IMG/VR virus record: IMGVR_UViG_2675903468_000003
Span: 1 to 40,979 of that record
DNA length: 40,979 nt
DNA from: a virus
Lineage: Duplodnaviria; Heunggongvirae; Uroviricota; Caudoviricetes
Strand: one strand, 5' to 3'
How positions within the stretch are numbered: position 1 is the first letter of the stretch; each line of letters opens with the position of its first letter. The position numbers and the translations under genes were made by a program. The notes below the pieces were generated by a model, which was not told where the DNA came from, searched no databases, and saw only the letters and a list, made by a program, of their open reading frames with translations. Shown here one piece after another: positions 31,358-40,979 of the stretch.

Positions 31358-32008
31358 ATGAAAACTCAATTGATGGGAGAGCGCATTCGCGCTCGGAGAA
31401 AAGAACTCAAGATCAGGCAGGCCGCACTTGGAAAGATGGTCGGCGTGTCTAATGTTGCCATATCTCAGTGGGAACGCTCTGAGACAGAGCCAAATGGAGA
31501 GAATCTTCTCGCCCTGGCTAATGCGTTGAAGTGTTCCCCTGACTATCTGATGAAAGGAGAGGAAAGTCTTTCAAACATTGCCTATCACAGTAGGCATGAT
31601 CCAAGAGGGTCATACCCTCTGATTAGCTGGGTGAGCGCAGGATGCTGGATGGAAGCTGTAGAACCATATCATAAGCGTGCAATAGATAACTGGTACGATA
31701 CAACCGTAGACTGTTCAGAAGATTCGTTTTGGTTGGACGTGAAGGGAGACTCAATGACGGCTCCGGCCGGTCTCAGTATCCCTGAAGGAATGATAATACT
31801 CGTCGATCCTGAAGTAGAGCCGCGTAACGGGAAACTGGTAGTTGCAAAGCTCGAAGGAGAAAACGAGGCAACTTTCAAGAAGTTAGTTATTGATGCAGGC
31901 AGGAAGTTTCTAAAACCACTTAACCCACAATATCCGATGATCGAGATCAACGGAAACTGCAAAATCATCGGCGTAGTTGTCGATGCAAAACTAGCAAACC
32001 TTCCATAA
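31358..32008 (+). CDS. c2: CI-type prophage repressor (P22 C2-like; HTH plus S24 autopeptidase domain)
   Basis: 216 aa, MKTQLMGERIRARRKELKIRQAALGKMVGVSNVAISQWERSETEPNGENL... with C-terminal GDSM and Lys motifs; matches P22 C2. Confidence 0.9.
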   Translation: MKTQLMGERIRARRKELKIRQAALGKMVGVSNVAISQWERSETEPNGENLLALANALKCSPDYLMKGEESLSNIAYHSRHDPRGSYPLISWVSAGCWMEAVEPYHKRAIDNWYDTTVDCSEDSFWLDVKGDSMTAPAGLSIPEGMIILVDPEVEPRNGKLVVAKLEGENEATFKKLVIDAGRKFLKPLNPQYPMIEINGNCKIIGVVVDAKLANLP

Positions 32009-32356: not shown

Positions 32357-32662
32357 ATGACAGTAGTCATTACATATCTGGCTGACGATAACGCCAGAAA
32401 TCGCCGCAGAGCACGCAGACAGGCTCAACGTGAACAGGCAATGCAAGAGCAGCGATTGGCGCGAAAAATTGCGCTAAAGCTCTCTGGTTGCGTCAGAGCA
32501 GATAAAGCAGCATCACTCGGAAGCCTTCGCTGCAAGAAGGCAGAAGAAGTCGAGCGTAAACAGAACCGTATTTACTACAGCAAGCCACGCAGTGAAATGG
32601 GTGTGACTTGCTCAGGCCGCCAGAAGCAACGCGGAAAATCAATTCCAGCTTATTACGATTGA
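32357..32662 (+). CDS. N: N-like transcription antiterminator
   Basis: N-terminal arginine-rich motif DNARNRRRARRQAQRE. C-terminal YYSKPRSEMGVTCSGRQKQRGKSIP resembles lambda N YSKPGERGITCSGRQKIKGKSIP. Confidence 0.7.
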   Translation: MTVVITYLADDNARNRRRARRQAQREQAMQEQRLARKIALKLSGCVRADKAASLGSLRCKKAEEVERKQNRIYYSKPRSEMGVTCSGRQKQRGKSIPAYYD

Positions 32663-32991: not shown

Positions 32992-33315
32992 ATGGAAGCA
33001 TTAGTAGTAGAGCGAAGCGAGGATGGCTACTGGACGCACCCAGAATACGCCAACCTGTTTGGGGATAGAGAGGCAATTTCAGCTGATGAGTTCAGATCTT
33101 TCTGCAAGCAGCATGGCATTGAATCATCAATTGTTGAAATGGAAAACGACAACAATCAAACGGTAATTGACGCGTATTTTGAAGATGGGAATCCAAACAT
33201 CAGTGGATGGGAGCCAAGCATGCCAGATGGAGAAGGATGGTTTGTCGGTTCGATTCACGATACAGAAGACGGTCCGATCTGCGTTTGGTTCAGAAATGTA
33301 GATAAGGCCGCATAG
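32992..33315 (+). CDS. Acidic hypothetical protein (107 aa)
   Basis: GAGGTGAG RBS; no recognised domain. Confidence 0.5.
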   Translation: MEALVVERSEDGYWTHPEYANLFGDREAISADEFRSFCKQHGIESSIVEMENDNNQTVIDAYFEDGNPNISGWEPSMPDGEGWFVGSIHDTEDGPICVWFRNVDKAA

Positions 33316-33335
33316 TCGGCCTTTATTTTTGGCAT
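33308..33335 (+). terminator. Intrinsic terminator-like hairpin overlapping the stop of the 107-aa ORF
   Basis: GGCCGcatagtCGGCC followed by TTTATTTTT. Confidence 0.45.
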
Positions 33336-33442
33336 AAACAACAGAATAAACACAGCACTGTGTATTCATTCCAATGAGTGAATACACGGAGCAATGTCGC
33401 TCGTAACTAAACAGGAGCCGACTTGTTCTGATTGTTGGAAAT

Positions 33443-33475
33443 CTTCTTTGCCCTCCAGCGTGAGGGCGATTTTTT
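33443..33475 (+). terminator. Intrinsic terminator
   Basis: GCCCTCcagcgtGAGGGC followed by GATTTTTTTT. Confidence 0.5.
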
Positions 33476-33496
33476 TTGACGTAGGAAATATGAAAT

Positions 33497-33808
33497 ATGA
33501 AATTACGTGTCTGGCATATCCCGCAAGTACCTATGAAGCCGTTCATTGTAGAAGTGGCAAGTGTTGAAGAGGGTGTTCGCCTGATGGATGCACTGGCTGA
33601 TTATGATGCCTTTCAGTATGACAACAACATCAAGCATGACTACTGCAATGCTAACGGCCTTGAGATGTGGGATGAGAGCCTTACTGATGAAGATTTATCA
33701 GAGATGGAGCTTACGGATCGCTGGGTAGATTGGTACAGCGAATGCCAATGTTACGACGACCCACGTAAATATATCGAAAGCCTGAAAGAAGAAACCTCAG
33801 CAGCCTGA
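33497..33808 (+). CDS. Acidic hypothetical protein (103 aa)
   Basis: Track ORF directly after the terminator; no recognised domain. Confidence 0.5.
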   Translation: MKLRVWHIPQVPMKPFIVEVASVEEGVRLMDALADYDAFQYDNNIKHDYCNANGLEMWDESLTDEDLSEMELTDRWVDWYSECQCYDDPRKYIESLKEETSAA

Positions 33809-33843
33809 GCGCGGATTTGACGCATACAAATTAAGGAGGATAT

Positions 33844-34812
33844 ATGAGTGAAGTAACAGATTTAGTTGTTATTGAAAAATCAAATGCAATGACTGTATTT
33901 CAGTCTGCCGACCAGATTGAAGAAATCCTTCAAAAGGTTGAACGTGAAGTTATGTCCTTTGTGCCTGATATCACAACGGCAAAGGGCAGAAAGGAGATCG
34001 CTTCTCTGGCGTATAAAGTTGCGCAGACGAAAACATATCTCGATGGTCTTGGCAAAGACCTTGTTGCTGAACTGAAGGAAATTCCAAAGCTAATTGATGC
34101 CAACCGCAAGACAGTGCGTGATCGCCTTGATGAGCTGAAATCCAAGGCACGCCAGCCTCTTACTGATTATGAGGAGGAACAGGCACGGATTAAAGCCGAA
34201 GAAGAAGCTAAGGCAGCAGCTGAAGCTCTCGCAAAGCAAATTGAGTCTGACCATGAAATAGCGATTTTGATGGATCGCGAATTTGACCGCCAAAGAGAAG
34301 AGGCAAGACTCAAAGCGGAGCAGGAAAAGCGAGAGCATGAAGAACGCTTAAAAAGAGAAGCTGAAGAGAAAGCCAGAGCAGAAGCCGAAGCAAAGGCAAA
34401 AGCCGAAATTGAAGCAGCAGCAAGGCGAGAAGCAGAAGCTAAGGCAGCAGCGGAACGTGCAGAGCGTGAACGCATTGAAGCCGAGCAACGAGCACAGCGC
34501 GAAGCAAAAGAGGCAGCAGAACGAGCTGAAAGAGAAAAGCAGGCGGCAATTGAAGCAGAACGCCGAAAAGCACAGGAGGAGGCTGAACGAATCCGGCGCG
34601 AGGCTGAAGCAAAAGAGCAAGCCAGAATAGCAGAAGAAAAAAGAATCAAGGACGAAGAAGAGCGTAGAGCAAAGGATAAAGCTCACCGGAAAGAAGTAAA
34701 TAACAAAATACTTGCTGACCTTATCAAGGTTGGTGCATCAGAAGATGTTGCTAAAAATATCATAACAGCCATCGTAAAAGGCGAAGTATTCGCAACAAAA
34801 ATAACCTACTAA
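33844..34812 (+). CDS. Hypothetical protein with a long E/A/K/R-rich single-helix or coiled-coil region
   Basis: 322 aa: roughly 110-aa N-domain, roughly 170 aa of KAEAEAKAKAEIEAAARREAEAKAAAE-type repeats (TolA-domain-II-like composition), short C-terminal domain. The repetitive DNA produces spurious antisense ORFs. Confidence 0.6.
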   Translation: MSEVTDLVVIEKSNAMTVFQSADQIEEILQKVEREVMSFVPDITTAKGRKEIASLAYKVAQTKTYLDGLGKDLVAELKEIPKLIDANRKTVRDRLDELKSKARQPLTDYEEEQARIKAEEEAKAAAEALAKQIESDHEIAILMDREFDRQREEARLKAEQEKREHEERLKREAEEKARAEAEAKAKAEIEAAARREAEAKAAAERAERERIEAEQRAQREAKEAAERAEREKQAAIEAERRKAQEEAERIRREAEAKEQARIAEEKRIKDEEERRAKDKAHRKEVNNKILADLIKVGASEDVAKNIITAIVKGEVFATKITY

Positions 34813-34836
34813 TAAAACCAACATAAGGAACCACCC

Positions 34837-34968
34837 ATGATTTACGCAATCGCGGGAGGTGCTCGCATGGGTGCCTTCCAACTAAATGAATCTTTACTTG
34901 AACGAATCACCCGTAAATTACGTGACGGATGGAAAAGAGTTGAGGTCTTATTATGCGCAATGAAATAG
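34837..34968 (+). CDS. Small hypothetical protein (about 43 aa)
   Basis: Self-derived ORF with AAGGAA RBS-like sequence. Confidence 0.25.
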   Translation: MIYAIAGGARMGAFQLNESLLERITRKLRDGWKRVEVLLCAMK

Positions 34969-35179
34969 CCATTAATCACCAGATGCTTCGTGCTGCACAG
35001 AACAAAGCAGTAATAGCCCGATTTATTGGTGATTCAAAAATGTGGCTTGAAGCAAATAAAGCGATGAAATCAGCTATCAACCTTCCGTGGTATCGCAGGA
35101 AATGAGTTTCACAGATAACTGGTCAGACGAAGAATTCATTCGTCAGATGAAAGAATTAATCGGTAACGAAGGAGATATT

Positions 35180-35350
35180 CATGTCACTTGCAACCACAGT
35201 GAAGGAGAGCAAGTTACAGAGACGCATGTACACGCAGCAGGCGTTAATGTATCGCCAGAAGGGAGATCGTGAAGGTGTTCGCGTATTTTTAAATGCGGCA
35301 AAGACTGAAGTATTAAATCAGCGTTATTTCCTTGGGCCATGTCCATTCTG
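35180..35350 (+). CDS. Small hypothetical protein (about 56 aa)
   Basis: Self-derived ORF MSLATTVKESKLQRRMYTQQALMYRQKGDREGV... with a strong AAGGAG RBS about 7 nt upstream; overlaps a track ORF in another frame. Confidence 0.3.
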
Positions 35351-35361
35351 AGAACAAACAT

Positions 35362-35967
35362 ATGAGCAAAGAATTTTACGCAAGACTGGCAGCTATTCAG
35401 GAGAATCTGAACGCGCCAAAGAATCAGTACAACTCATTCGGCAAATATAAATACAGAAGCTGCGAAGACATTCTTGAAGGCGTTAAGCCGTTACTGAATG
35501 GCCTGTTTTTATCAATCAGCGATGAAGTTGTGTTGATTGGTGATCGGTATTACGTGAAAGCCACGGCAACTATTACCGATGGTGAAAACAGTCATACGGC
35601 AACCGCTCTTGCACGAGAGGAAGAAAGCAAGAAAGGAATGGATTCTGCACAAGTTACGGGAGCTACAAGCTCTTATGCACGCAAGTATTGCCTCAATGGT
35701 TTATTCGGCATTGATGATGCGAAAGATGCAGATACAGACGAGCATAAACATCAGCAGAACGCAGCAGCAAAGCAATCAAAACCATCACCTACACCTGAAC
35801 AGGTTCTAAAAGCATTCACTGACGCAGCATTGCAGAAAAACACCGTAGAAGAGCTTAAACAGGCGTTCGCCAAAGCGTGGAAGATGCTCGAAGGCACACC
35901 GGAGCAGCACAAAGCGCAGGACGTTTACAACATCAGACGAGACGAATTAGAAGGAGCGGCTGCTTAA
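35362..35967 (+). CDS. erf: Erf-family single-strand annealing recombinase
   Basis: MSKEFYARLAAIQENLNAPKNQYNSFGKYKYRSCEDILEGVKPLLNGLFLSISDEVVLIGDRYYVKATATITDGENSH... matches P22 Erf. Start trimmed to MSKEFY. Confidence 0.85.
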   Translation: MSKEFYARLAAIQENLNAPKNQYNSFGKYKYRSCEDILEGVKPLLNGLFLSISDEVVLIGDRYYVKATATITDGENSHTATALAREEESKKGMDSAQVTGATSSYARKYCLNGLFGIDDAKDADTDEHKHQQNAAAKQSKPSPTPEQVLKAFTDAALQKNTVEELKQAFAKAWKMLEGTPEQHKAQDVYNIRRDELEGAAA

Positions 35968-36350
35968 TGGCACATTCGATTACTGTAAGACTAAACAAGC
36001 CCGCAAGAGAGTTTCAGGCCGGGGAAAATATCGGATTCAACATCCGTGCTGGCGTTCAGTATTACGATCGCCAGACAAAAAAGAAAGAATGGACAAACTA
36101 CAGCGCCGTTGTATTTGCCAAGCCGGGAGCGCAAGCGGATTACTACCGTAGTGTTCTTGTTGAAGGTGGCATTGTGGAAATTACCGGAGAAAACATCAGG
36201 GTTGATGTTTATCAGGGGCAAAATGGTCAATCAATCACTCTTGAATTACTGAATGCAAAGATTGGATTTGCAGCTTCAGGAAATGGCCCGCAGCAGCAAA
36301 GTAGTAACCAGCAGAACACTCCTGTATACGACGATTCCATCCCATTCTGA
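35967..36350 (+). CDS. ssb: Single-stranded DNA-binding protein (short phage SSB)
   Basis: AAGGAG RBS; ends ...TPVYDDSIPF, the acidic DDxIPF tail typical of SSBs. Start ATG overlaps the erf stop. Confidence 0.75.
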   Translation: MAHSITVRLNKPAREFQAGENIGFNIRAGVQYYDRQTKKKEWTNYSAVVFAKPGAQADYYRSVLVEGGIVEITGENIRVDVYQGQNGQSITLELLNAKIGFAASGNGPQQQSSNQQNTPVYDDSIPF

Positions 36351-36373
36351 TTTAGAAAAACAAGGATTTAATT

Positions 36374-36670
36374 ATGCCAGCGCCTCTGTATGGTGCGGAT
36401 GACGCGCGCCGCTGTTCCGGCAATTCCGTATCGGAGGTGCTGGATAAATTCAGAAAAAACTACGATCGAATAATGTCTCTACCGCAGGAAACGAAAGAGG
36501 AAAAGGAATTTCGCCACTGTATATGGCTTGCAGAGAAAGAAGAACGCGAGCGAATTTACCAGACATCAATCCGACCATTCCGCAAAGCCACATATACCCA
36601 CTTCCCTGAATATATCGACCCGCGCCTGCGTAATTACCGCTCACGCTATGGCGCTATCAGTAATGACTGA
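36374..36670 (+). CDS. Hypothetical protein (98 aa)
   Basis: Track ORF with AAGGA RBS; no recognised domain. Confidence 0.5.
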
Positions 36671-36680
36671 GGAATTTACC

Positions 36681-36845
36681 ATGAGAGGACTTGCATACAA
36701 TCCCGGCATTCTTCCGGCAGAAATGATTATTCGCCAACGCGTAAAGCCAATGCCATCGAGAGAGGAATTGCTTAAGAGAAATTCTTTTCCATCAGTGAAT
36801 CAAAACAAATATCTGAATGCGATGTTGCGGAGTGGGAAGAAATGA
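36681..36845 (+). CDS. Small hypothetical protein (54 aa)
   Basis: GAGGA RBS then [25 protein letters not shown]...; internal start of a longer track ORF. Confidence 0.35.
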
Positions 36846-37291
36846 AACAAATGTCACTAATTGAGATGGATGGTTTTCTGAAAGGTAAATGCATCCCAAG
36901 TGATTTAAAGGTTAACGAAACAAACGCTGAATATCTGGTGCGTAAGTTCGGTGAACTTGAATCAAAACTAGAAACGGCGTTGCGTGAGTGTCGTTCTGCT
37001 GGAATCACGATTGATAACCTTGAGGCTAAATGCGCGAAGATGGCTGCTGAAAATACCTCGCTTAAGCAATCTGAGAAGGAATTTAATGACTTTTGTCGTG
37101 AGGAGTTTAGCGAATGGGAAGATGATGTTACTGAAACCCCAGCCACCGACGCATTCCTGGCTGAAGTACGGGCGCAGGGCGTGGAGATGGCTATGGAGCA
37201 TATGCAGTCGAGCGGTTCGTTAACATTTGGAGATTGCTACATATCACTTAACGAGTTCGCCGCAGAGCTTCGCAAAGGAGGCAACCAGTGA
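36842..37291 (+). CDS. Hypothetical protein (149 aa)
   Basis: Track ORF with start/stop overlap to neighbours; no recognised domain. Confidence 0.5.
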
Positions 37292-37734
37292 GCAAGATTG
37301 ATTATCAAAAGCTTCGTGAAATCGCTGAAAAAACAAAAATTGCCGGTGAAGCACCTGTAATGCCTTTCGATCAGCGAATTAATGCGCTTAACGATTTTAT
37401 GAAGCACTTTTCGCCAGATATCGCGCTGGCATTGTTGGATGAACGGGAAAGAAACCAGCAATACATCAAACGCCGCGACCAGGAGAACGAGGATATTGCG
37501 CTTACGGTAGGGAAGTTGCGCGTTGAGCTTGAGGCAGAAAAACAGCGGGCAAAGGATCTGTTTATGGAAAATGCTCGGCTTAAGTCAGGTATAGCCGGTC
37601 TGATACACCTCGGTATTCGATATGCAGATGTTGATGTCATGAAAATTGCTGGAGATGCCCAGCTTTCTACCCCATGCACTGACAGCATCATAAACAGCAT
37701 TGCAACAGGCATTCGCATCAACGGAGGTGAGTAA
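37288..37734 (+). CDS. Ead/Ea22-like early-region protein
   Basis: [24 protein letters not shown]... N-terminus recalled as typical of the Ead/Ea22-like family; coiled-coil middle region. Confidence 0.45.
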   Translation: MSKIDYQKLREIAEKTKIAGEAPVMPFDQRINALNDFMKHFSPDIALALLDERERNQQYIKRRDQENEDIALTVGKLRVELEAEKQRAKDLFMENARLKSGIAGLIHLGIRYADVDVMKIAGDAQLSTPCTDSIINSIATGIRINGGE

Positions 37735-37910
37735 TGCGTGTGGCATGTATCGGCTTGTTACCGTACCCGACTCGTTTTTGGGCTTCTGCGCTAATTGCAA
37801 AGCCACATGTCCTGATGGCTGACAACATCATCCCGGTACCAAAGCGCCGCCATACCGGTATTGCAGCGGCACGACGAGCAGCAAAGAGACGCAGGAGAGC
37901 AAAGCGATGA
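37734..37910 (+). CDS. Small basic hypothetical protein (58 aa)
   Basis: Self-derived ORF with GGAGGTGAG RBS; C-terminus AAARRAAKRRRRAKR. Coordinates anchored by TAATG overlap with the upstream track ORF. Confidence 0.3.
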   Translation: MRVACIGLLPYPTRFWASALIAKPHVLMADNIIPVPKRRHTGIAAARRAAKRRRRAKR

Positions 37911-38083
37911 AAAACCGTAAAGCAAAATTACTTCTTTTATCGCGTTCGACGGGGTACGAGAAGCTACCAATCAGCAATCACAAACGGGCGGTGATCGGCA
38001 TGTTTGGTAGGGTGGTATTCGCATTTAACTATAAACCCACCGCGTCGCGGAACAGACGAGAGAAGGGGTACGCAGTGCGATGA
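37907..38083 (+). CDS. Small basic hypothetical protein (58 aa), paralogous start to the next ORF
   Basis: Self-derived ORF MKNRKAKLLLLSRSTGYEKLPISNHKRAVIGMFG...; ATGA overlap with neighbours. Confidence 0.3.
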   Translation: MKNRKAKLLLLSRSTGYEKLPISNHKRAVIGMFGRVVFAFNYKPTASRNRREKGYAVR

Positions 38084-38271
38084 AAAACCGTAAGGCAAAG
38101 ATGCTGATAGCAAAGCCCGGGCAGCGTATCCGTATCTCAAATCGGCTTGTTATTTACTATAGATATCTGGGTTTTAGGGGGTGTTCCTCTATTCGTTTTT
38201 ACGGTGTCTGGCGAAACAGAAGCGCAGCACAAAACCGCTGGAAAAACCACTTTCGCACTAAAGGAGAGTGA
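38080..38271 (+). CDS. Small basic hypothetical protein (63 aa)
   Basis: Track ORF MKNRKAKMLIAKPGQRIRISNRL...; shares the MKNRKAK start with the preceding ORF. Confidence 0.35.
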   Translation: MKNRKAKMLIAKPGQRIRISNRLVIYYRYLGFRGCSSIRFYGVWRNRSAAQNRWKNHFRTKGE

Positions 38272-38272
38272 T

Positions 38273-39019
38273 ATGACCACTTTCACCGACAAAGAACTGA
38301 TTAAAGAAATCAAAGAGCGTATCAGCAGCCTGGACGTTCGAGACAATATTGAACGCCGGGCTTATGAAATCGCACTGGCATCGCTGGAAGCAGAGCCGGC
38401 GGCGTGGATGCGTGATGACGCAGATGGTCGTGAGTATAACGCTCGCAATGAATTTTCTGGTGGAGGGGGAGGAGTTCCACTCTACGCCACCCCTCCAGCG
38501 CCAGTAGTACCGGAAGAAAAACCAATGCCTAATCCTCTTAGCATGTACGCGGTTGATGCTGTTGCCGCTATTGCAGAGGTGAGAGGCTGGAACGCCTGCC
38601 GCGCTGCCATGCTTCATAGTGCCGAACCTGCAAGTAATCATGAAGAGTTGCCGCTTGATTATCTCCAAGGTCAAAAAGATGGTCTTGAATGGGCTGCGCA
38701 GCTTGCAGAAGCAAATCACCCACAAACTGGCGACTGGATTTACGATGACCCGCTGGAGCTGGCTAAAGCTATCAGAAAAGGTCCTGACATGCCTGAATTC
38801 GATGGACCAACTCCGGTAACTCCGGATGGTTGGATAAGCTGTAGTGAGCGAATGCCGGATAAGTTAATTCCGGTAATGGTCATGTATGAAGACGGTGAGA
38901 TGTGGTCTGCAATGTGGAATGGCAATCGCTGGGATGATGGCACCGAATATCCGGATCCGCACTCAGTTACGCACTGGCGTGAAATGCCAGCAGCGCCGAA
39001 ACAGGAGGTGAAGTCGTGA
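38273..39019 (+). CDS. DUF551-domain protein
   Basis: GGAGAG RBS, start trimmed to MTTFTDKELIKEIK. C-terminal ...GTEYPDPHSVTHWREMPAAP is the DUF551 signature. Confidence 0.6.
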   Translation: MTTFTDKELIKEIKERISSLDVRDNIERRAYEIALASLEAEPAAWMRDDADGREYNARNEFSGGGGGVPLYATPPAPVVPEEKPMPNPLSMYAVDAVAAIAEVRGWNACRAAMLHSAEPASNHEELPLDYLQGQKDGLEWAAQLAEANHPQTGDWIYDDPLELAKAIRKGPDMPEFDGPTPVTPDGWISCSERMPDKLIPVMVMYEDGEMWSAMWNGNRWDDGTEYPDPHSVTHWREMPAAPKQEVKS

Positions 39020-39228
39020 GCAAGCACATCATCAAATATGACTATCGAGAGGGAGTTAAACTTGCAAAGCATGAAATAGAAACGTGGTGCGGACATGCGC
39101 CACAATTTTCAGACTGGTTGTTTCAGGATGCTCAGCACGCGCTGTTGAGCATTGAGCAGGGAACGCTGCTTGTTCCTTGCAAGAATTGTCTGGCAGCAAT
39201 CATCAAAACGGCGCAGGAGGTGAAGTGA
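39016..39228 (+). CDS. Hypothetical protein (70 aa)
   Basis: Track ORF with overlap to neighbours; no recognised domain. Confidence 0.45.
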   Translation: MSKHIIKYDYREGVKLAKHEIETWCGHAPQFSDWLFQDAQHALLSIEQGTLLVPCKNCLAAIIKTAQEVK

Positions 39229-39506
39229 TGGACTCCTTCGCGAAATATACGATCATTGACTGGATAGCATTCCTTCAGGTTTTGCTAATCTGGTTTTATA
39301 TGGCTTACAGGAGTGGACAGTGGATTGTCAGTGAAGCCTGTAGCAAGGGATGGCGTTGGTGGAACCGAAAGAATAAAAAAGCACTGGCATTGGATTCGTT
39401 TTACGAAGCATTCAATCTTAACAGTCTTCAGCCAGGTTCTGTCATTGTAGTCACCACTCAAAGCGGCATGACCATTCAGATTCATAAACCAAAAGAGGAG
39501 AAATGA
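39228..39506 (+). CDS. Hypothetical protein with one predicted TM helix (92 aa)
   Basis: GGAGGTGAAG RBS; hydrophobic segment IIDWIAFLQVLLIWFYMAY. Start trimmed from the track ORF. Confidence 0.45.
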   Translation: MDSFAKYTIIDWIAFLQVLLIWFYMAYRSGQWIVSEACSKGWRWWNRKNKKALALDSFYEAFNLNSLQPGSVIVVTTQSGMTIQIHKPKEEK

Positions 39507-39592
39507 TGTGGCCTATATGTGTTAATTGCGGACGGATGTGCCTATCTGGATGGTGCCGAAAGTGCGACAAATGCACGAAGAAAAGACAATAA
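39503..39592 (+). CDS. Cys-rich micro-ORF (29 aa)
   Basis: Self-derived MMWPICVNCGRMCLSGWCRKCDKCTKKRQ with AAAGAGGAGAA RBS; start overlaps the upstream stop. Confidence 0.25.
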   Translation: MMWPICVNCGRMCLSGWCRKCDKCTKKRQ

Positions 39593-39664
39593 CAATCCTC
39601 GCATTCGCGGGGATTTCTTTTATCTGAACTCGCTACGGCGGGTTTTGTTTTATGGAGATGATAA

Positions 39665-39832
39665 ATGCACTTCCGAGTCACAGGTGAATGGAATGGAGAG
39701 CCATTCGACAGGGTTATCGAAGCAGAGGACATCAACGACTGCTATAACCACTGGATGATATGGGCGCAGATAGCGCATGCAGACGTAACCAATATTCGAA
39801 TTGAAGAACTGAAAGAACACCAAGACGCCTGA
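39665..39832 (+). CDS. Small hypothetical protein (55 aa)
   Basis: Self-derived MHFRVTGEWNGEPFDRVIEAEDINDCYNHWMIWAQIAHADVTNIRIEELKEHQDA with GGAGATG RBS-like sequence; followed by a weak hairpin and T-run. Confidence 0.35.
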   Translation: MHFRVTGEWNGEPFDRVIEAEDINDCYNHWMIWAQIAHADVTNIRIEELKEHQDA

Positions 39833-39850
39833 TGGCGGTTTTTTATTGCC

Positions 39851-39867
39851 TGATTTGCAGGTTCGAT
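39851..39867 (+). other. tRNA-Arg (argW-like) T-arm fragment
   Basis: ATTTGCAGGTTCGATTCC matches the argW segment AATTGCAGGTTCGATTCC (from memory) and then diverges. Not a complete tRNA. Confidence 0.4.
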
Positions 39868-39889
39868 TCCCTATTCGGAGATAGCACTC

Positions 39890-40090
39890 ATGCAACACGA
39901 ACTACAACCTGATTCACTGGTTGATTTGAAATTCATCATGGCCGATACTGGCTTTGGTAAAACCTTCATCTATGACCGGATTAAGTCCGGAGACCTGCCT
40001 AAAGCCAAAGTTATCCACGGGCGAGCACGATGGTTATATCGTGACCATTGTGAATTCAAAAATAAGCTCTTAAGCCGCGCTAATGGGTAA
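39890..40090 (+). CDS. AlpA/Xis-type DNA-binding protein (candidate excisionase)
   Basis: 66 aa MQHELQPDSLVDLKFIMADTGFGKTFIYDRIKSGDLPKAKVIHGRARWLYRDHCEFKNKL; AlpA/Vis-family HTH pattern; last phage-like gene before the att motif. Confidence 0.7.
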   Translation: MQHELQPDSLVDLKFIMADTGFGKTFIYDRIKSGDLPKAKVIHGRARWLYRDHCEFKNKLLSRANG

Positions 40091-40166
40091 AATAGCGGGT
40101 AAAATATTTCTCACATCTAAAAAACACCATTCCAATCAATCCCCTGCCGCCTCAAGTAGATGTCTG

Positions 40167-40180
40167 CAGGGGACACCAGA
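40167..40180 (+). other. Putative attR core (3' end of argW-like tRNA-Arg)
   Basis: TGCAGGGGACACCA equals the acceptor-stem 3' strand plus CCA of argW as recalled. Follows the AlpA-like gene, at the far end from int. Confidence 0.45.
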
Positions 40181-40566
40181 TACCCTTCAAACGAAATCTA
40201 CCTTCACCCCGTAAAAGATGGGTTTGGCAGCACACTTGCCTTATATCTACTCATTTTTACTGCAACAGGTTGAAATCTCAGCACTGTCAGAAAGCGCTGA
40301 TGACTAAACAGCCCTGGGCCGGGCGATGTAACCATCACACAGAATCCTGATAGCGAAATATGGCGTGACTCGATACTTCACTCCGCAATGCATTCCTTGA
40401 TGAATTCGCAGGACCGTGATACACGGGACAGGTCACTGAATGACGACAATGTCCTGGAAATCAGCGAACCGCGCATCTGAAGTACATTTGAGCGACTGTA
40501 CCAGAACATGAATGAGGCGTTTGGATTAGGCGATTATTAGCAGGGCTAAGCATTTTACTATTATTA

Positions 40567-40610
40567 TTTTCCGGTTGAGGGATATAGAGCTATCGACAAC
40601 AACCGGAAAA
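40567..40610. repeat. Perfect 11-bp inverted repeat with about 21-nt spacer
   Basis: TTTTCCGGTTG ... CAACCGGAAAA, immediately beyond the stop of the terminal minus-strand ORF. No U-tract. Confidence 0.4.
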
Positions 40611-40619
40611 AGTTTACGT

Positions 40620-40979
40620 CTATATTGCTGAAGGTACAGGCGTTTCCATAACTATTTGCTCGCGTTTTTTACTCAAGAAGAAAATGCCAAATAGCAACAT
40701 CAGGCAGACAATACCCGAAATTGCGAAGAAAACTGTCTGGTAGCCTGCGTGGTCAAAGAGTATCCCAGTCGGCGTTGAAAGCAGCACAATCCCAAGCGAA
40801 CTGGCAATTTGAAAACCAATCAGAAAGATCGTCGACGACAGGCGCTTATCAAAGTTTGCCACGCTGTATTTGAAGACGGATATGACACAAAGTGGAACCT
40901 CAATGGCATGTAACAACTTCACTAATGAAATAATCCAGGGGTTAACGAACAGCGCGCAGGAAAGGATACGCAACGCCAT
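40620..40979 (-). CDS. LacY-family (oligosaccharide:H+ symporter) permease C-terminal region, probably host flank; possibly partial
   Basis: ...LSTPTGILFDHAGYQTVFFAISGIVCLMLLFGIFFLS resembles the LacY C-terminal TM region. ORF starts at the last base of the window, so the 5' end may lie outside it. Confidence 0.5.
   Translation of the reverse strand: MALRILSCALFVNPWIISLVKLLHAIEVPLCVISVFKYSVANFDKRLSSTIFLIGFQIASSLGIVLLSTPTGILFDHAGYQTVFFAISGIVCLMLLFGIFFLSKKREQIVMETPVPSAI

Follow-up and report, generated by a model that had tools for sequence, protein, structure and literature searches.

[quoted passage not shown] The proteins described from this region, including Orf60a, Orf63, Orf61, Orf73, Ea8.5 and Ea22, belong to the same niche as those discussed here and are likewise small, non-essential and early (PMC8614690). 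No sequence relationship exists between them and the family treated below, and the characterized ones are devoid of its MKNRKAK...AAQNRWKNH motifs.

A further precedent is provided by phage phiV10, in which an Ead/Ea22 gene is followed, in the same order, by p49, p50 and p51. The GenBank note to this phage states that p51 resembles both p50 and p08 of VT2-Sa, by which the paralogy was already recorded. In 933W, a family copy is located directly after the Ea22-like gene L0069. The whole stretch of DNA analyzed here, termed the window (IMG/VR record IMGVR_UViG_2675903468_000003, 40,979 nt), carries three small open reading frames, ORF1, ORF2 and ORF3, which show no difference in kind from these examples of phrog_1380 and phrog_13831 (phiV10 p49, p50 and p51, and VT2-Sa p08). 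The family is already catalogued in PHROGs, among the hypothetical proteins of GenBank and in the phiV10 notes, and is therefore not new in kind; what characterizes the window is the combination of an internal copy of the ORF2 type with a terminal copy of the ORF3 type, a specific pairing that is also found in other E. coli prophages.

The explanation that we favor, and which we regard as probable with appreciable room for doubt, is that the three ORFs are real, coupled early genes, each encoding a very basic protein of about 60 aa, that ORF2 and ORF3 are phrog_1380 paralogues, and that the family is shuffled by cassette recombination. ORF1, ORF2 and ORF3 would accordingly be translationally coupled, and the marks of the family are MKNRKAK at the N-terminus, [IV]SN[RH] in a predicted strand at the centre and AAQNR(W)KNH in a predicted helix at the C-terminus.

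Genomic setting of the locus

Profile searches locate ORF1-3 between erf-ssb-abc2 and xis, and all of the genes listed next are on the plus strand. A cI-like S24 repressor gene (31358-32008) and an N-like antiterminator gene (32357-32662; phrog_271, 2.5e-36) are followed by the genes of the ERF recombinase (35332-35967), the SSB (35877-36350) and the P22 Abc2 anti-RecBCD protein (36374-36670). An ea-type gene (36842-37291; phrog_614) and an Ead/Ea22-like gene (37288..37734; Pfam PF13935, 1.9e-22) precede ORF1, and a gene with a DUF551 domain (38273..39019; Pfam PF04448, 1.3e-17) comes after ORF3, followed by two more small genes (39016-39506) and an excisionase-like (Xis-like) ORF (39890-40090). 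This gene content places the ORFs in the early-left (pL) operon, which is N-antiterminated, of an E. coli prophage of the P22/lambda type. The segment between the recombination genes and xis is non-essential and accessory, and the ORF1-3 block is the counterpart of the lambda/Stx-phage exo-xis region. Delayed-early expression of the three genes would be achieved through their coupling.

The scan for promoter-like sites found none near ORF1-3. In the terminator scan, two strong tandem terminator-like hairpins were found at 39594-39645, between the last of the small ea-type genes and the excisionase-like ORF, and the part of the window from 33000 to 40979 contains 22 terminator-like sites against 8.7 expected. 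A further terminator-like hairpin lies inside ORF3 (38175-38191, plus strand), where TAGGGGGTGTTCCTCTA is followed by TTCGTTTTTA within an insert specific to the ORF3 type, GFRGCSSIRFYG; this weak hairpin has 7 pairs (3 GC), is located in a segment absent from the other subfamilies and may be due to chance. The sole match of the window above an Rfam gathering threshold is an int-alpA RNA (RF02996; 21226-21288, minus strand; 44.2 bits, E 4.6e-06), which points to a separate integrase/alpA element of the P4 type, situated about 10 kb to the left of the prophage immunity region.

Related DNA is strongly mosaic: parts of the locus recur in hundreds of E. coli genomes and phages, and the whole 538-bp stretch of the three ORFs occurs in only 2 of 5,426 complete E. 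coli genomes. In phiV10 and E. coli UTME-8, the same block is placed after the replication genes; the UTME-8 locus (NZ_CP157115) is 99.6% identical to that of the window.

Three coupled genes for very basic proteins

The three chained ORFs of 58-63 aa, joined by TAATG and ATGA, which had been pointed out in an earlier note on this DNA, are present in both the sequence and the ORF list. ORF1 (37734-37910, 58 aa), ORF2 (37907-38083, 58 aa) and ORF3 (38080-38271, 63 aa) are all encoded on the plus strand and start with ATG. The last A of the stop codon TAA of the Ead/Ea22-like gene (37732-37734) is the first base of the ORF1 ATG (TAATG), an ATGA overlap is found at both the ORF1/ORF2 and the ORF2/ORF3 junctions, and the ATG of the DUF551 gene at 38273 lies one base past the ORF3 stop. 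Since tight stop/start packing is normal in phage operons, the chaining itself is not unusual. Moreover, the ATGA overlap is inherent in the way family members begin: within ATGAAA, the +1 frame reads TGA, so that any preceding gene in that frame stops there.

As Shine-Dalgarno sequences, GGAGG (37723..37727), read from the sequence, is positioned 6 nt before the ATG of ORF1, and AGGAG (37893..37897), in the ORF1 tail, 9 nt before that of ORF2. ORF3 is preceded by a weak purine-rich Shine-Dalgarno-like element, GAGAAGGGG (38060..38068), which lies in the ORF2 tail and is part of a copy-to-copy junction conserved as (g)aa(a/g)gggtacgcagt..gATG. Upstream of first family copies, the sequence cAGGAGarcaaarcgATG is kept in many loci, and the final codons of ORF3, AAAGGAGAG (38260-38268), constitute the Shine-Dalgarno sequence of the next gene.

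The basic nature that had been noticed for the three products is borne out by their isoelectric points (12.0, 11.6 and 11.8 for ORF1, ORF2 and ORF3, respectively) and by net charges of +14, +13 and +16. The N-terminal half of ORF1 is hydrophobic and its tail is rich in Arg and Lys (AAARRAAKRRRRAKR). ORF2 and ORF3 have GRAVY values of -0.60 and -0.86, respectively, and neither of them contains a transmembrane-like segment.

Family membership and paralogy

ORF1 matches phrog_13831 over its full length (4e-41; residues 1-58 on profile positions 1-58). Both ORF2 and ORF3 match phrog_1380, a profile of 62 positions, likewise over their full length (5.8e-23, residues 1-58 on positions 1-60, and 5.5e-13, residues 1-63 on positions 1-62, respectively). 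Three motifs are common to the two proteins in the family alignments, namely MKNRKAK followed by a hydrophobic residue, [IV]SN[RH], and [ST]A[AS][QR]NR preceding a basic tail, and the relatedness that had been suspected between ORF2 and ORF3 is thus real. The residues M1, N3, R4, K5, A6, L9, N21, G31, N52 and R53 are invariant in the alignments of 13 (A2) and 25 (A3) sequences; in the wider alignment of 42 sequences (A4) none is strictly invariant, and N3, R4, K5, A6, L9, N21 and R53 are kept at 90% or more.

ORF2 and ORF3 both start with ATGAAAAACCGTAA(A/G)GCAAA. Their near-identity over the first 20 nt, reported earlier, was confirmed, since this 20-mer occurs at those two sites of the window only; the shared start ATGAAAAACCGTAARGCAAA is present exactly twice in the 41-kb window, compared with 0 expected from 100 shuffles. 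In the repeat search, the likeness reached 8 nt further upstream, giving a repeat of 28 nt with 25/28 identity between its copies at 37899..37926 and 38072..38099. The earlier note had taken this repeat as the mark of a local duplication, and as a recent event such a duplication is ruled out: the overall identity of the two proteins is about 27%, BLASTP aligns their first 10 residues only, and the shared 20-28 nt turned out to be the start/junction of every family member, including singletons elsewhere. On the basis of the three motifs, which are shared despite this low identity, ORF2 and ORF3 are paralogues of one narrow family, phrog_1380, that diverged anciently.

No matches to Pfam, NCBIfam or PADLOC were obtained for ORF1, ORF2 or ORF3, and the Pfam search of the 42 members together with the longer members P0097, P0085, P0092 and P0098 gave nothing above noise. 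NdhS (E=0.06) and DUF7279 (E=0.003, 2 members) fell under their cut-offs and were rejected. The tail of ORF1 (37860-37907; AAARRAAKRRRRAKR and stop) loosely resembles the tails of internal phrog_1380 copies (SAAQNRRKKGYAVR and stop), both ending on an ATGA junction, and the C-terminal 25 residues of ORF1 match phrog_8108 (4.3e-06). ORF1 may thus share an ancestral tail/junction module with the phrog_1380 family.

Arrays, tails and recombination

The organization of the family was examined in 84 loci (80 from IMG/VR, three from GenBank/RefSeq and the window itself), which contain 122 family copies as 48 singles, 34 pairs and 2 triples. In multi-copy arrays, the copies invariably share one strand, run head to tail and overlap as ATGA. 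In about 43 of the 84 loci, the gene immediately before the first phrog_1380 copy is ORF1-like, which makes ORF1 (phrog_13831) a frequent but optional leader gene; in the other loci, the first copy is preceded by a different gene that has the same ...cAGGAGarcaaarcgATG leader at its end, or by an intergenic spacer.

The C-terminus of a copy depends on its place in the array. The tail ...NRR(K/E)KGYAVR is found in 37 of the 38 copies that precede another copy, and ...NRWKNH-LRTKGE in 83 of the 84 last or only copies, and either tail is possible within one subfamily. In the window, ORF2 is of the internal-copy type (...NRREKGYAVR) and ORF3 of the terminal-copy type (...AAQNRWKNHFRTKGE). In one pair, L081@2501 and L028@2322, the identity is 96% over nt 1-150 and falls to 30% beyond, with the break inside the conserved AAQNR codons. 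It is from such breakpoints within the AAQNR motif that assembly of the arrays by recombination is deduced. In addition, the tails carry the purine-rich Shine-Dalgarno sequence of the next gene, either as AAAGGAGAG-TGA-n-ATG or as GAAGAAAGGG...ATGA, and the position after the last copy is taken by at least 10 unrelated genes, with an offset that is nearly always 2 nt.

Taken from these alignments, the conserved ends appear to serve simultaneously as protein motifs, as translation signals and as sites of homologous recombination, which explains why the first 20 nt of ORF2 and ORF3 are almost the same. The 5' cassette end would comprise the ribosome-binding site (RBS) plus ATGAAAAACCGTAA, and the 3' end GCNGCNCARAACMG. 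Recombination at these ends would stack one to three copies head to tail and swap the last ~8 codons, which would double as the RBS of whatever gene comes next.

Lambdoid mosaicism is known for conserved boundary or linker sequences at gene junctions. The family ends share with these that short conserved ends coincide with breakpoints and join different neighbors; they are unlike them in that selection also operates at the amino acid level and in that they include a start codon, an RBS and protein motifs. The locus represents a clean case of cassette-style mosaicism, in which C-terminal codons are exchanged along with the RBS of the neighbor.

Predicted fold and possible function

An AlphaFold2 model built from the 42 diverse members was of moderate confidence (pLDDT 76.7, pTM 0.50). 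In ORF3, it places helices at residues 4-10 and 49-62 and strands at 15-18, 23-30 and 38-45, and this moderate-confidence fold would be an alpha-beta3-alpha mini-domain, for which the searches gave no significant relative in structure or in sequence. Three-stranded-sheet-plus-helix DNA-binding domains such as the AP2/ERF and the tyrosine integrase arm-type domains offer a structural comparison; at the level of sequence, no Pfam match to an AP2 or integrase arm-type domain was found in the 42 members, and hhalign against the arm-binding N-domain of lambda Int returned a probability of 0.13%. The AQ..WK motif is presumably reminiscent of lambda-N-type arginine-rich RNA-binding peptides; the N-like antiterminator of this prophage is encoded separately, at 32357-32662. 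The sole sequence-profile match in the PDB was the PRONE domain of plant RopGEF (E=0.5), which was judged to be due to chance because PRONE is all-helical. A motif-by-motif likeness of the A4 alignment to the PRONE N-terminus of PDB 2ntx_A (MMKDRFAKLLL...LSN...QARWKK) is considered chance as well.

Profile searches assigned no function by homology, and homology and fold searches yielded no nucleic-acid-binding family or fold. From their charge, size, sheet-plus-helix layout and niche, the likeliest mode of action, proposed only tentatively, would be that of early accessory modulators that bind nucleic acid. As alpha-beta3-alpha proteins with charges of +13 to +16, they may act in this way like the small modulators of the exo-xis region.

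The main alternative is that the proteins are real and do not bind nucleic acid, acting instead on the host as protein-binding or inhibitory effectors; they could inhibit growth, act on membranes or modulate proteins to which they bind, in the manner of lambda Kil, cIII or Orf63, and their positive charge would serve another target. Small proteins that modulate the host by various mechanisms are known from this region (PMC8614690), and both the hydrophobic N-terminal half of ORF1 and the want of a nucleic-acid-binding match would suit such a role. We nevertheless hold it to be rather doubtful: with about 60 residues, the proteins carry a net charge of +13 to +16 that extends to both ends of the chain, as is most typical of proteins binding nucleic acid or the ribosome, ORF2 and ORF3 have no membrane-spanning character, and PADLOC profiles of anti-phage defence components gave no match.

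Evidence that the ORFs are coding

That ORF2 and ORF3 encode proteins at all has to be weighed against a second alternative, according to which they are non-functional, being decaying or non-coding filler between the Ead/Ea22 and DUF551 genes whose ends are DNA-level mosaic boundaries for recombination. Several observations fit it. PGAP annotates no CDS there in many genomes, the conserved ends clearly serve as recombination breakpoints, and neighboring genes are often annotated as truncated pseudogenes; the DUF551 gene, for instance, is a truncated pseudogene for PGAP in L001 and L002, and is intact (248 aa) in the window. Moreover, the interiors are near random between subfamilies, with a nucleotide identity of 0.3-0.45.

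The codons, in contrast, speak against filler. The conserved residues are kept through switches between AGY and TCN codons for Ser and between CGN and AGR codons for Arg: the motif serines are encoded by AGC/AGT as well as TCA/TCG/TCT, the motif arginines by CGC, AGA and AGG, and the central glycine by all four codons. Between subfamilies, the conserved columns have an amino acid identity of 0.83-1.00 as against a nucleotide identity of 0.43-0.67. Within subfamilies, the minimum numbers of changes at the three codon positions are 41/32/95 (chi-square p=1e-9), counted on an alignment free of protein-alignment bias, and the ratio pN/pS in the ORF (+0) frame is 0.36 overall, on pair counts that ignore phylogeny. 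It amounts to 0.25 in the ORF3 type, 0.08 in the ORF2 type and 0.27 in subfamily C, and ranges from 0.08 to 0.27 in four subfamilies; the ORF3 type, with changes of 7/7/24, displays the same third-position excess. Subfamily B, the largest with 24 unique sequences, is weakly constrained, as deduced from its changes of 13/8/12, without a third-position excess, and its pN/pS of 0.51.

The reading frame itself is preserved. An ATG start is found in 119 of the 122 copies and a length of 58-63 aa in about 93% of them (113/122). The ORF frame is the only one free of stops in all subfamilies, other frames being interrupted in nearly all of them and giving pN/pS values of about 0.5-1.7 overall, and the same three motifs recur in the Salmonella and Klebsiella members. 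For ORF1, all 27 unique variants are intact, indels occur only as multiples of 3, and the changes of 7/14/23 again show an excess at the third position. Unlike chance ORFs, the ORFs show purifying selection in their frame, in tests without correction for phylogeny, together with conservation across homologues, more weakly so for subfamily B, and the filler reading appears decidedly unlikely. The earlier note had chosen conservation as the point at which its proposal could fail, and in the relatives the ORFs are conserved as ORFs; its view of them as genuine, tightly coupled coding sequences of a prophage early region is supported.

A structured non-coding RNA or an antisense gene as the conserved unit is most improbable, for, although the minus strand contains three chained ORFs (37791-37970, 37964-38140 and 38137-38346) and the antisense -1 frame ranks second from the bottom in pN/pS (0.54), the low ratio is the usual echo of the wobble positions of the sense strand, those frames contain stops in most subfamilies, the neighboring genes are all on the plus strand with Shine-Dalgarno sequences before the plus-strand starts, Rfam has no match in the region at the gathering threshold or at E<=10, and folding is no better than that of shuffled sequences on either strand (z -1.24 and +0.27). 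The minus-strand ORFs, of 59, 58 and 69 aa and with a 4-nt overlap in one pair that mirrors the plus strand, were judged spurious on account of the stops in homologues, and the RNA reading was rejected on the Rfam and folding results.

Distribution and annotation status

The phrog_1380 family is narrow, comprising 50 clusters, nearly all of 55-100 aa, in a profile search of 1.84 billion representative proteins. By tblastn, it was found in 137 of 50,697 phage records; most of these belong to Stx-converting phages and other temperate phages of Escherichia, and a few to Salmonella phages. Members are also present in E. marmotae and Klebsiella, and E. coli genomes contain roughly 500 copies. The scan of genome contigs with a 63-aa query gave 118 pattern matches, 0 of which were confirmed by tblastn; this is probably a limit of sensitivity of so short a query, since the search of viral contigs gave 281 relatives.

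Proteins identical to those of ORF1, ORF2 and ORF3 are already public as 'hypothetical protein', and the one identical to ORF2 occurs on 95 public contigs. RefSeq annotates ORF1 as WP_001261533.1 and leaves the ORF2-ORF3 stretch without a CDS in many genomes. 933W, VT2-Sakai and about 70 other Stx-converting phages carry the family, for the most part without annotation, and many of the LC6160xx and LC7441xx Stx-phage records have no feature at the family copy. The 933W copy (L003, 2153-2341) is unannotated, and the annotated L0068 (2271-2558 of the locus) probably has a wrongly extended N-terminus, as its start falls inside this copy in a different frame.

Since the reading frame remains open across the 3' end of the preceding gene, gene callers have often given family members an upstream extension. 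The database proteins P0029, P0043 and P0020 (90-103 aa) are of this kind and are probably mis-started rather than true fusions; one such over-extended product is labelled 'ead/Ea22-like family protein', with a PF13935 match. At the other end, the +2 frame is open from a TTG at 38147 into the DUF551 gene (38147-39019, plus strand), and in P0070 (222 aa) the N-terminus of ORF3 is fused to the DUF551 frame, which implies a 1-nt indel or a sequencing error in some genome. The supplements of two small-ORF studies (the Sakai small-gene Ribo-seq and the Enterobacteriaceae microproteome) contain no occurrence of the family, and the searched literature has no mention of MKNRKAK, phrog_1380, PhiV10p50 or VT2-Sap08.

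Significance

The direct importance of these genes is small, as they are typical uncharacterized accessory phage genes. Their modest interest arises from their under-annotation in RefSeq and Stx-phage records, from the junction-dependent switching of their tails and from their occurrence in the exo-xis region of Stx phages, which are of medical relevance. Many Stx-phage records and RefSeq/PGAP miss or mis-start these genes, and the codon evidence justifies their annotation.

A more far-reaching reading, which we think unlikely, is that phrog_1380 and ORF1 form an unrecognized class of alpha-beta3-alpha nucleic-acid-binding proteins, made early from pL, that tune the lysis-lysogeny decision or host expression. 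If it were true, the family would be an overlooked player in the induction of Stx prophages, given that it is present and mostly unannotated in the Stx-converting phages, and its cassette-like ends would let phages vary both copy number and specificity. The more limited proposal of nucleic-acid binding, if true, would provide further candidates in the exo-xis region, which is poorly understood and has an influence on the induction of Stx prophages.
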